Assembly: GCF_013122565.1 (NCBI RefSeq)
Contig: NZ_CP053258.1
Length of the DNA stretch: 64,000 nucleotides
DNA from: Escherichia coli
GTDB taxonomy: Bacteria > Pseudomonadota > Gammaproteobacteria > Enterobacterales > Enterobacteriaceae
Strand: one strand, 5' to 3'
Part shown: positions 53,647 to 53,724 of the stretch, in pieces
Layout: each line of letters opens with the position of its first letter
How positions within the stretch are numbered: the first letter of the stretch is position 1
Made by a program: the position numbers and the translations under genes
The notes under the pieces: generated by a model
Seen by the model: the letters and a program-made list of their open reading frames with translations, nothing else
What the model was told of the DNA's origin: nothing
The model's database searches: none

Positions 53647-53724
53647 AGAGATACGGCTAATAACCGTATCTCTTGACAGAGTGAGCAGATGCACATAAAT
53701 TAATCATACGGTTGATAGCCGTAT
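53647..53724 (+). promoter_or_regulatory. promoter of the toxin-antitoxin operon bracketed by two palindromic candidate operators (ATACGG-N7-CCGTAT)
   Basis: Perfect 10-bp inverted repeat agagatacgg-ctaataa-ccgtatctct at 53647-53673 abuts -35 TTGACA (53673-53678); 17-bp spacer; -10 TAAATT (53696-53701); second palindrome atacgg-ttgatag-ccgtat at 53706-53724 lies just downstream of the -10; SD aaagagg at 53766-53772. Confidence 0.65.

Follow-up and report, generated by a model that had tools for sequence, protein, structure and literature searches.

A 64,000-nucleotide stretch of Escherichia coli DNA (assembly GCF_013122565.1, contig NZ_CP053258.1), called the window here and numbered from its first letter, carries two palindromes, O1 and O2, on either side of the promoter of itaRT. 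This is a toxin-antitoxin (TA) operon whose products are the ribbon-helix-helix (RHH) antitoxin ItaR and the GNAT toxin ItaT, and it is among the few GNAT toxin systems with a known target, aminoacyl-tRNA (Ile-tRNA Ile in the first report). The two palindromes are predicted to be the operators of the itaRT promoter, which would be autorepressed through them by the ItaR-ItaT complex, and we put the probability of this reading at roughly 0.85. The sites exist, they are conserved, and they travel specifically with modules of the ItaRT family. Autorepression by the complex is already published and the sites themselves are new; the advance is a modest one, made up of the exact itaRT operators, a family consensus, and a conserved dual-operator layout that separates the ItaR family from the KacA/AtaR family.

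The palindromes and the core promoter

O1 (P1 in the repeat search) occupies 53647-53673, with no strand assigned, and reads AGAGATACGG-CTAATAA-CCGTATCTCT, with perfect arms of 10 bp; its core, ATACGG-CTAATAA-CCGTAT, lies at 53651-53669. O2 (P2), likewise without a strand, occupies 53706-53724 and reads ATACGG-TTGATAG-CCGTAT, with perfect arms of 6 bp. The repeat finder reported O1 as arms of 13 nt with 92% complementarity, extended O2 to arms of 9 nt (53703-53727, 89% complementary), and listed the two 19-mers as both a direct and an inverted pair, 55 bp apart. The centres, at 53660 and 53715, are 55 bp apart and so are the starts, which agrees with the spacing of about 55 bp between centres in the preliminary description of this DNA. 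With up to one mismatch allowed, ATACGG-N7-CCGTAT is found in exactly two copies in the window, where 0.08 are expected from 100 shuffles of the window; two or more copies occurred in 0/100 shuffles.

A promoter scan of positions 53400-54900 returned a single sigma-70-like site on the plus strand, made of the -35 hexamer TTGACA (53673-53678) and, 17 bp after it, the -10 hexamer TAAATT (53696-53701), with 10/12 consensus positions matched. The last T of O1 is the first T of the -35 hexamer, and TGACA continues after it. The preliminary description had a perfect palindrome with 10-bp arms ending exactly at the -35 element; the palindrome is as stated, while its end overlaps TTGACA by 1 nt. O2 begins 4 nt past the -10 hexamer. 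Transcription is predicted to start at about 53708, which would place O1 at about -61 to -35 and O2 at about -2 to +17. The other parts of the described arrangement, a second palindrome with the same 6-bp core just after the -10 hexamer and near the predicted start, and a promoter between the two palindromes, can be read directly at these coordinates.

The itaRT genes and their published regulation

The gene after the promoter, itaR (53778-54089, plus strand, ATG at 53778), encodes a 103-residue DUF1778/TacA1 RHH antitoxin and is preceded by a Shine-Dalgarno sequence, AAAGAGG, that was read from the sequence at 53766-53772 on the same strand; relatives have GAGAGGT or GCGAGGT in its place. The second gene, itaT (54073-54615, plus strand), encodes a 180-residue GNAT toxin and overlaps itaR by 17 nt in the list of open reading frames (ORFs). 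The itaT product matches PDB entry 7BYY (ItaT) with an E value of 1.6e-117 over residues 1-180, and this is the entry of the ItaT structure paper (PMC7367177). The itaR product matches Pfam PF08681 (TacA1/DUF1778) at 2.8e-17, its nearest solved relatives are KacA (5ZGN) and AtaR (6AJM, 6GTS), and its label in the Prokaryotic Genome Annotation Pipeline (PGAP) is "TacA family antitoxin". NCBIfam held no curated family above its cut-off for ItaR or ItaT, so the naming of the two proteins rests on PDB and Pfam. Wilcox 2018 described ItaT from E. coli HS as a GNAT acetyltransferase of about 19.8 kDa, with an overlapping upstream gene for an RHH antitoxin of 11.4 kDa (PMC6125619). The window has both: a 180-residue ORF that matches ItaT and an overlapping upstream RHH ORF of 103 residues. 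Judged by these sequence matches, the downstream operon is itaRT, as published for E. coli HS (PMC6125619).

The regulation of this module has been studied with a reporter. A 172-bp upstream fragment placed before galK gave about 40-fold more transcript than a promoterless control, ItaR together with ItaT (wild type or a catalytic mutant) cut the reporter almost to background, and ItaR alone left it unaffected (PMC6125619). No acetylation of ItaR by ItaT could be detected, and the complex represses whether or not the toxin is catalytically active (PMC6125619). The fragment is given as "-183 to -11"; if this is counted from the ATG, it would correspond to about 53595-53767 and cover both palindromes. 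The copy of the PDB that was searched has ItaT alone (7BYY) and no ItaR-ItaT or ItaRT-DNA structure.

Conservation in ItaR relatives

The footprint set comprised 22 loci with ItaR relatives at 61-91% amino acid identity, or 23 promoters with the window included. Thirteen loci came from a scan of species-representative genomes and nine from look-ups of exact proteins, and the genera include Pseudocitrobacter, Edaphovirga, Rahnella (four loci), Buttiauxella, Phytobacter, Trabulsiella, Chimaeribacter, Serratia, Kluyvera, Superficieibacter, Klebsiella, Dickeya, Providencia and Ewingella. The genes next to these modules vary, among them holE, a thioredoxin/TPR gene, TraX-like and DUF1627 genes, and others.

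Two exact TACGG-N7-CCGTA sites are present in 19/22 relatives. Their equivalents of O1 stand 3-4 nt before TTGA(C), that is 4-5 nt after CCGTA, in 21/22, and their equivalents of O2 stand 4-9 nt past the -10 hexamer in 20/22. TTGAC is found in 22/23 aligned promoters, with TTGAT in the remaining one (L022), and a TAnnnT -10 hexamer at a 17-bp spacer fits 23/23, under a scoring script that gave a bonus for 17. Anchored on the -35 hexamer, all 23 promoters follow one plan: O1, 3-4 nt, TTGA(C), 17 bp, TAnnnT, 4-9 nt, O2. The spacing from start to start is 57 bp in 11 loci, 55 bp in three, and 56, 58 and 60 bp in two each (20 loci, window included). Information content peaks in the two arms, in the inner T...AG and in the two hexamers, and is near zero in the spacer and the flanks. 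Altogether 42 promoter sites were counted, two in each of 20 loci and one in each of three, against 0.009 expected by chance in the 8,995 upstream positions scanned. The family consensus of each 19-bp palindrome is R-TACGG-CTAWTAG-CCGTA-Y, with its two half-sites 13 bp apart, and the pattern for sites of the itaRT-operator type is written RTACGGCTNNTAGCCGTAY. As read from this alignment, promoter and putative operators leave the phylogenetic footprint of one composite unit, which moves together with the TA genes. The two-operator autorepression by an RHH-antitoxin/toxin complex that the preliminary description had expected is thus supported from three sides: the identity of the genes, the published reporter data (PMC6125619) and conservation in the 22 relatives.

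The alignment also bears on whether the palindromes act as RNA or DNA hairpins and not as protein sites. O2 would then stabilise the itaRT mRNA as a 5'-terminal stem-loop or act as a minus-strand terminator, and O1 would form a hairpin in transcripts that run on from cyoE, or a cruciform. Both sequences fold (O2 at -7.6 kcal/mol, z -3.3; O1 at -14.5 kcal/mol, z -6.4), a consensus scan flags O2 as terminator-like on the minus strand, and the flanks of O1 have dyad symmetry beyond the 6-bp core (39/88 versus 23.3 +/- 3.8 permuted, p ~1e-4). The ten core positions are, however, essentially invariant (22/22 O1 and all exact O2, with changes in the two degenerate O2 only), and no compensatory change occurs anywhere in the core; this invariance without covariation therefore points to sequence-specific recognition and not to pairing. 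Pairing often fails at the position beside the core, where A faces C or G faces T in 13/22 O1 and 8/21 O2, and E. coli O111 breaks the extended arm of O1 with a change from CTCT to GTCT. O1 lies between the cyoE terminator and the promoter, hence is poorly transcribed, and is outside the itaRT transcript; no T-run follows it. A start at about 53708 would cost the O2 stem 2 nt. Rfam has nothing near threshold in positions 53400-54200 of the window or in six related loci. Hairpins are, in our judgement, very unlikely to account for the two sites. The role of terminator for O2 was rejected, as no minus-strand gene ends there for the minus-strand hit to terminate.

The flanks of O1 are of interest in their own right. 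In many species the 4 bp beyond the core (53647-53650 and 53670-53673 in the window) are palindromic, with a sequence that is specific to the species, for example AGAG/CTCT, TCGG/CCGA, AATG/CATT and AGTC/GACT (window; also L006, L009, L012 and L022). The flanks of O2 have no such excess of symmetry (29/84 versus 23.7 permuted). The symmetry at O1 may come from contacts to the backbone or to DNA shape where the 27-bp contact region bends at its ends, or from the variable N-terminal arm of ItaR touching the DNA there.

The pair of sites was also searched for without any gene as reference. IMG/VR, a collection of viral contigs, was scanned for TACGG-N7-CCGTA-N36-45-TACGG-N7-CCGTA, and 11 hits were found. 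Eight of them lie directly upstream of ItaR/ItaT homologues of 58-83% identity, in the correct orientation, and the remaining three are tandem-repeat DNA. The double palindrome is thus a specific signature for ItaRT-family modules, with 8/8 non-repeat matches in IMG/VR.

Half-sites and DNA-reading residues

The preliminary description did not recognise the site sequences from any described system. Their TACGG-N7-CCGTA core is in fact that of the KacA-KacT operator in the crystal of PDB 5ZGN, AAATGTACGGTTATTAACCGTACATGA, which is GTACGG-N7-CCGTAC with an A/T-rich centre (PMC6698736), and both sites in the window have the inverted (G)TACGG repeat and 7-bp A/T-rich spacer of the KacA/AtaR type. 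On that operator a single KacA4KacT2 heterohexamer (KacT-KacA2-KacA2-KacT) covers the palindrome, and each arm is occupied by one RHH dimer. Base contacts are made by R12 (to G5), D10 (to C8), R8 (to G9 and to the G opposite C8) and D10' (to the C opposite G10), and binding is lost in the R8A and R12A mutants (PMC6698736).

ItaR and KacA (5ZGN) align without gaps at 36% identity, and ItaR numbering is KacA numbering plus 11; the ItaT toxin and the KacA-family toxin, KacT, are 28% identical. The predicted DNA-reading beta-strand of ItaR is R19-V-E21-L-K23, aligned with R8/D10/R12 of KacA, and R19, E21 and K23 are invariant in 20 ItaR-family members. The Arg/Glu/Lys of ItaR has the same chemistry as the Arg-x-Asp-x-Arg of KacA, although the residues are not identical. 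On the DNA side, the CGG whose bases KacA contacts is invariant in ItaR-family sites, and at the outer purine about 80% of sites have A and the others G. Under this model the outer purine would be read by K23 in ItaR, as it is by R12 in KacA.

KacA/AtaR-family promoters provide a second comparison. Five plasmid-borne loci (K. pneumoniae kacAT, two from E. coli, one from Citrobacter and one from Vibrio) were searched over 320 bp upstream of the ATG. Each has one GTACGG-N7-CCGTAC, just past the -10 hexamer, and none of the five has a palindrome at -35 within those 320 bp. The KacA-family site is therefore at the transcription start only, and the -35 site is a feature of the ItaR family. The position of O2 fits the single-operator layout of the KacA/AtaR type, but the ItaR family adds a conserved operator at -35.

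These five promoters could suggest that O2 by itself is the working repressor site and that O1 is weak, auxiliary or a vestigial duplicate, and one relative (L013) has indeed lost O1 and kept a perfect O2 with 8/8 symmetric flanking bases. Yet O1 is as well conserved as O2, with an exact TACGG-N7-CCGTA at a fixed offset before TTGA(C) in 21/22 relatives, and where one copy has decayed in L005 and L012, that copy is O2. In the window the longer perfect arms, of 10 bp, belong to O1, and the sister system TacAT uses two sites (PMC5449658). We regard it as unlikely that O2 works alone, and prefer to treat both palindromes as operators.

A model of repression

By analogy with KacAT and AtaRT, one ItaR4-ItaT2 heterohexamer would bind each palindrome, with one ItaR RHH dimer per TACGG arm and its beta-sheet (R19, E21, K23) in the major groove; it is from these relatives that we infer the contacts between bases and residues, the 4:2 stoichiometry and the occupancy of each site by a single complex. 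ItaT would hold two weakly binding ItaR dimers at the correct spacing of 13 bp. ItaR alone would fail to repress because the toxin is what positions both dimers.

The complex on O1, with a footprint of about 27 bp (53647-53673), would reach the -35 hexamer; 27 bp is both the KacAT-like contact length and the length of the perfect O1 palindrome. The complex on O2, at about 53702-53728, would start just past the -10 hexamer and cover the transcription start. Both footprints would fall within the territory of RNA polymerase, and therefore the occupancy of either site should exclude the polymerase. With both occupied, the core promoter would be sandwiched between the O1 and O2 complexes and RNA polymerase shut out. 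The consensus -35 hexamer and ideal 17-bp spacer that are kept in the relatives would imply a strong promoter that needs tight repression.

Several points weigh against this picture. The centres of the operators are 55-60 bp apart, or about 5.2-5.7 helical turns, so that the complexes would not always share a face of the helix, which speaks against their touching in a fixed way. The spacing instead arises because each site keeps a fixed register to the -35 and -10 hexamers; same-face helical phasing was set aside as its cause, being unneeded. Neither site is indispensable: two relatives (L005, L012) have a degenerate O2, and another (L013) has no O1 and has kept O2. In an E. coli isolate (L028, CRECJHTL34) the left arm of O2 reads ACACGG, changed at the equivalent of 53707, where every one of the 22 tallied O2 sites has T. 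ItaR shares just 36% identity with KacA, its N terminus is longer by 11 residues, and two of the DNA-reading residues are substituted, D10 to E and R12 to K, though conservatively. That ItaR by itself does not repress in vivo could instead be due to the instability of free antitoxin. Finally, the words operator, palindrome, inverted repeat, EMSA (electrophoretic mobility shift assay) and footprint are all absent from the text of PMC6125619, and among the papers open to full-text search none was found that maps the itaRT operators. The changed O2 of L028 is also an observation of practical interest, as it could serve as a natural operator mutant.

Genomic context and leaders

The window region is that of cyoABCDE-yajR in E. 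coli. The intrinsic terminator of cyoE was found by the terminator scan at 53609-53632 on the plus strand, and an island of about 2.35 kb that carries itaRT starts directly past it, at about 53634, and extends to about 55990, before yajR. In a genome comparison, homology to an island-free E. coli genome stops after the T-tract of the terminator. Of 5,426 complete E. coli genomes, 1,367 carry the itaRT island; at its position, island-free genomes have about 100 bp of unrelated spacer. The island also holds a minus-strand gene for a 331-residue Sel1/TPR-repeat protein (54671-55666), which is frameshifted in at least one island-bearing genome (L028).

An 11-bp direct repeat, TGTCTGAGATC (53636-53646) and TGTATGAGATC (53727-53737), with 10/11 matches, stands on either side of the block formed by O1, the promoter and O2, and a weaker form of it is visible in the syntenic Pseudocitrobacter locus (L001). 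We estimate that chance alone would give about 0.2 repeats of this kind in a 241-bp region, and this one may mean nothing. A tandem duplication as the origin of O1 and O2 was considered and rejected: the period from O1 to O2 is 55 bp and that of the flanking repeat 91 bp.

Such surroundings raise the idea that the sites are bound by an unrelated host transcription factor, or are remnants of a mobile element, such as terminal repeats or an attachment site. O1 is about 13 bp inside the left edge of the island, and the direct repeat brackets the promoter block. Against this, the right end of the island has nothing comparable, and the repeat is not far from what chance would give. The sites belong to the inserted module and not to the cyoE-yajR backbone, their position relative to the -35 and -10 hexamers is fixed, and the pair accompanies ItaR homologues in many genera and in chromosomal, plasmid-like and prophage-like settings. 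An origin or function apart from ItaRT is hard to credit given this distribution, and operators that belong to the TA module are the preferred explanation.

The family itself appears to be carried on mobile elements. Double-operator ItaRT-family modules were seen on contigs classed as viral or prophage (L031-L036, L039, L041), and other family modules adjoin TraX-like and DUF1627 genes. Some E. coli have a second, diverged ItaR-like module (L021, from a Logan assembly; protein P0057, which NCBI assigns to Escherichia coli), with an antitoxin 68% identical to ItaR, its own operator pair and a long leader. Paralogous ItaRT-family modules with near-identical operators can therefore share one species.

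The leader between O2 and itaR differs among the relatives. In the window it is 53 nt long and has two ATGs directly past O2. Translation from the ATG at 53730 would stay in the itaR frame and lengthen the protein by 16 residues (MRSTPYDFIQLIKEVT); the ATG at 53726 opens the +1 frame. Database entries of 119-125 residues use upstream starts of the 53730 kind. The syntenic Pseudocitrobacter locus has a separate 13-codon ORF, MYGIHHQDFIQPH, at the equivalent position of its leader, and a 12-mer, GATTTCATTCAG, is kept between its leader and that of the window.

In about half of the ItaR loci from other genera (L002, L003, L010, L019-L026), the distance from O2 to the ATG is 155-241 nt, and this long leader holds a conserved module that is absent from E. 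coli (in L020, for example, at about 500-700). The module has a hairpin, GGCGTAAGAAACACGCC, whose outer pair covaries (G-C, A-T, T-A), and a Shine-Dalgarno sequence with an ORF of 15-21 codons for a conserved peptide, such as MKFTANVFNLNRFRCIF, MRNFDNALNLNRFRCFL or MKHESKSVEFHRVRCLL, or for a second type of peptide (MSLKKIQNLNNFKGIPFTGKR, MQNLNFSNFNHLRRRPFAGKR). A strong TAAGGAGG follows about 25-30 nt ahead of the antitoxin Shine-Dalgarno. A search of related loci gave no Rfam match for the long leader. Its ORF could encode a leader peptide or a third component.

Comparison with known systems

The closest comparators are kacAT of Klebsiella pneumoniae (PDB 5ZGN) and ataRT of E. coli O157:H7, the details of the latter being taken from a review (PMC8138530) and from PMC6698736. 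Like ItaRT, both pair a DUF1778 RHH antitoxin with a GNAT toxin, both have a TACGG-N7-CCGTA repeat with an A/T-rich centre in a site that overlaps the transcription start, and in both the effective repressor is the complex and not the free antitoxin. Their derepression is set by the ratio of toxin to antitoxin, which is known as conditional cooperativity (PMC6698736, PMC8138530). The sites differ in detail: ItaR sites keep the inner CT...AG (RTACGGCT) and favour A at the outer purine, whereas KacA sites keep an outer T-GTACGG and vary at the centre. DUF1778 antitoxins as distant as these, at 36% identity, thus share a CGG-centred half-site but differ in the number of operators.

The tacAT module of Salmonella enterica is also of the GNAT/DUF1778 kind, and there too the TacA-TacT complex, and not TacA alone, binds the promoter (PMC5449658). 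The complex has two distinct binding sites there, one from -81 to -46 and one from -46 to -6, in a stretch of about 75 bp ahead of the start codon (PMC5449658), and through TacAT a two-site layout is already known in the superfamily. For its part, ItaRT has two conserved candidate sites that are defined by sequence. The systems also part in that TacT acetylates TacA and alters its DNA binding, whereas no acetylation of ItaR by ItaT was detected (PMC6125619). In relBE, mqsRA and RHH arrays of the FitAB type, palindromes likewise overlap promoter elements and the toxin co-represses (PMC8138530), but folds, half-sites and geometry differ from those of ItaRT, and their sites are usually adjacent to each other and not on either side of the -35 and -10 hexamers.

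Three extensions of the operator reading are conceivable: that the -35 operator is a family elaboration of the KacAT/AtaRT design, that modules repress one another, and that the N-terminal arm of ItaR makes contacts at the O1 flanks. Taken jointly they are tentative, and it is rather doubtful that all of them hold. Given the common TACGG-N7-CCGTA core, ItaRT and modules of the AtaRT/KacAT type in one cell might partly cross-repress. Two ItaR4-ItaT2 complexes on the core promoter could be linked or unlinked through dimerisation of ItaT with ItaT, and if the two-operator reading is true, the second operator could make the response to the toxin:antitoxin ratio sharper, or divide it into two steps, compared with relatives that have a single operator.

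Current models are not overturned by these results. Autoregulation of itaRT has so far been known from a 172-bp reporter fragment, and the operators and their consensus now give exact targets for binding studies, mutagenesis and co-crystallisation. The ItaR and KacA families form a natural pair in which to compare the effect of a second operator on ratio sensing and the insulation of paralogous modules from each other.

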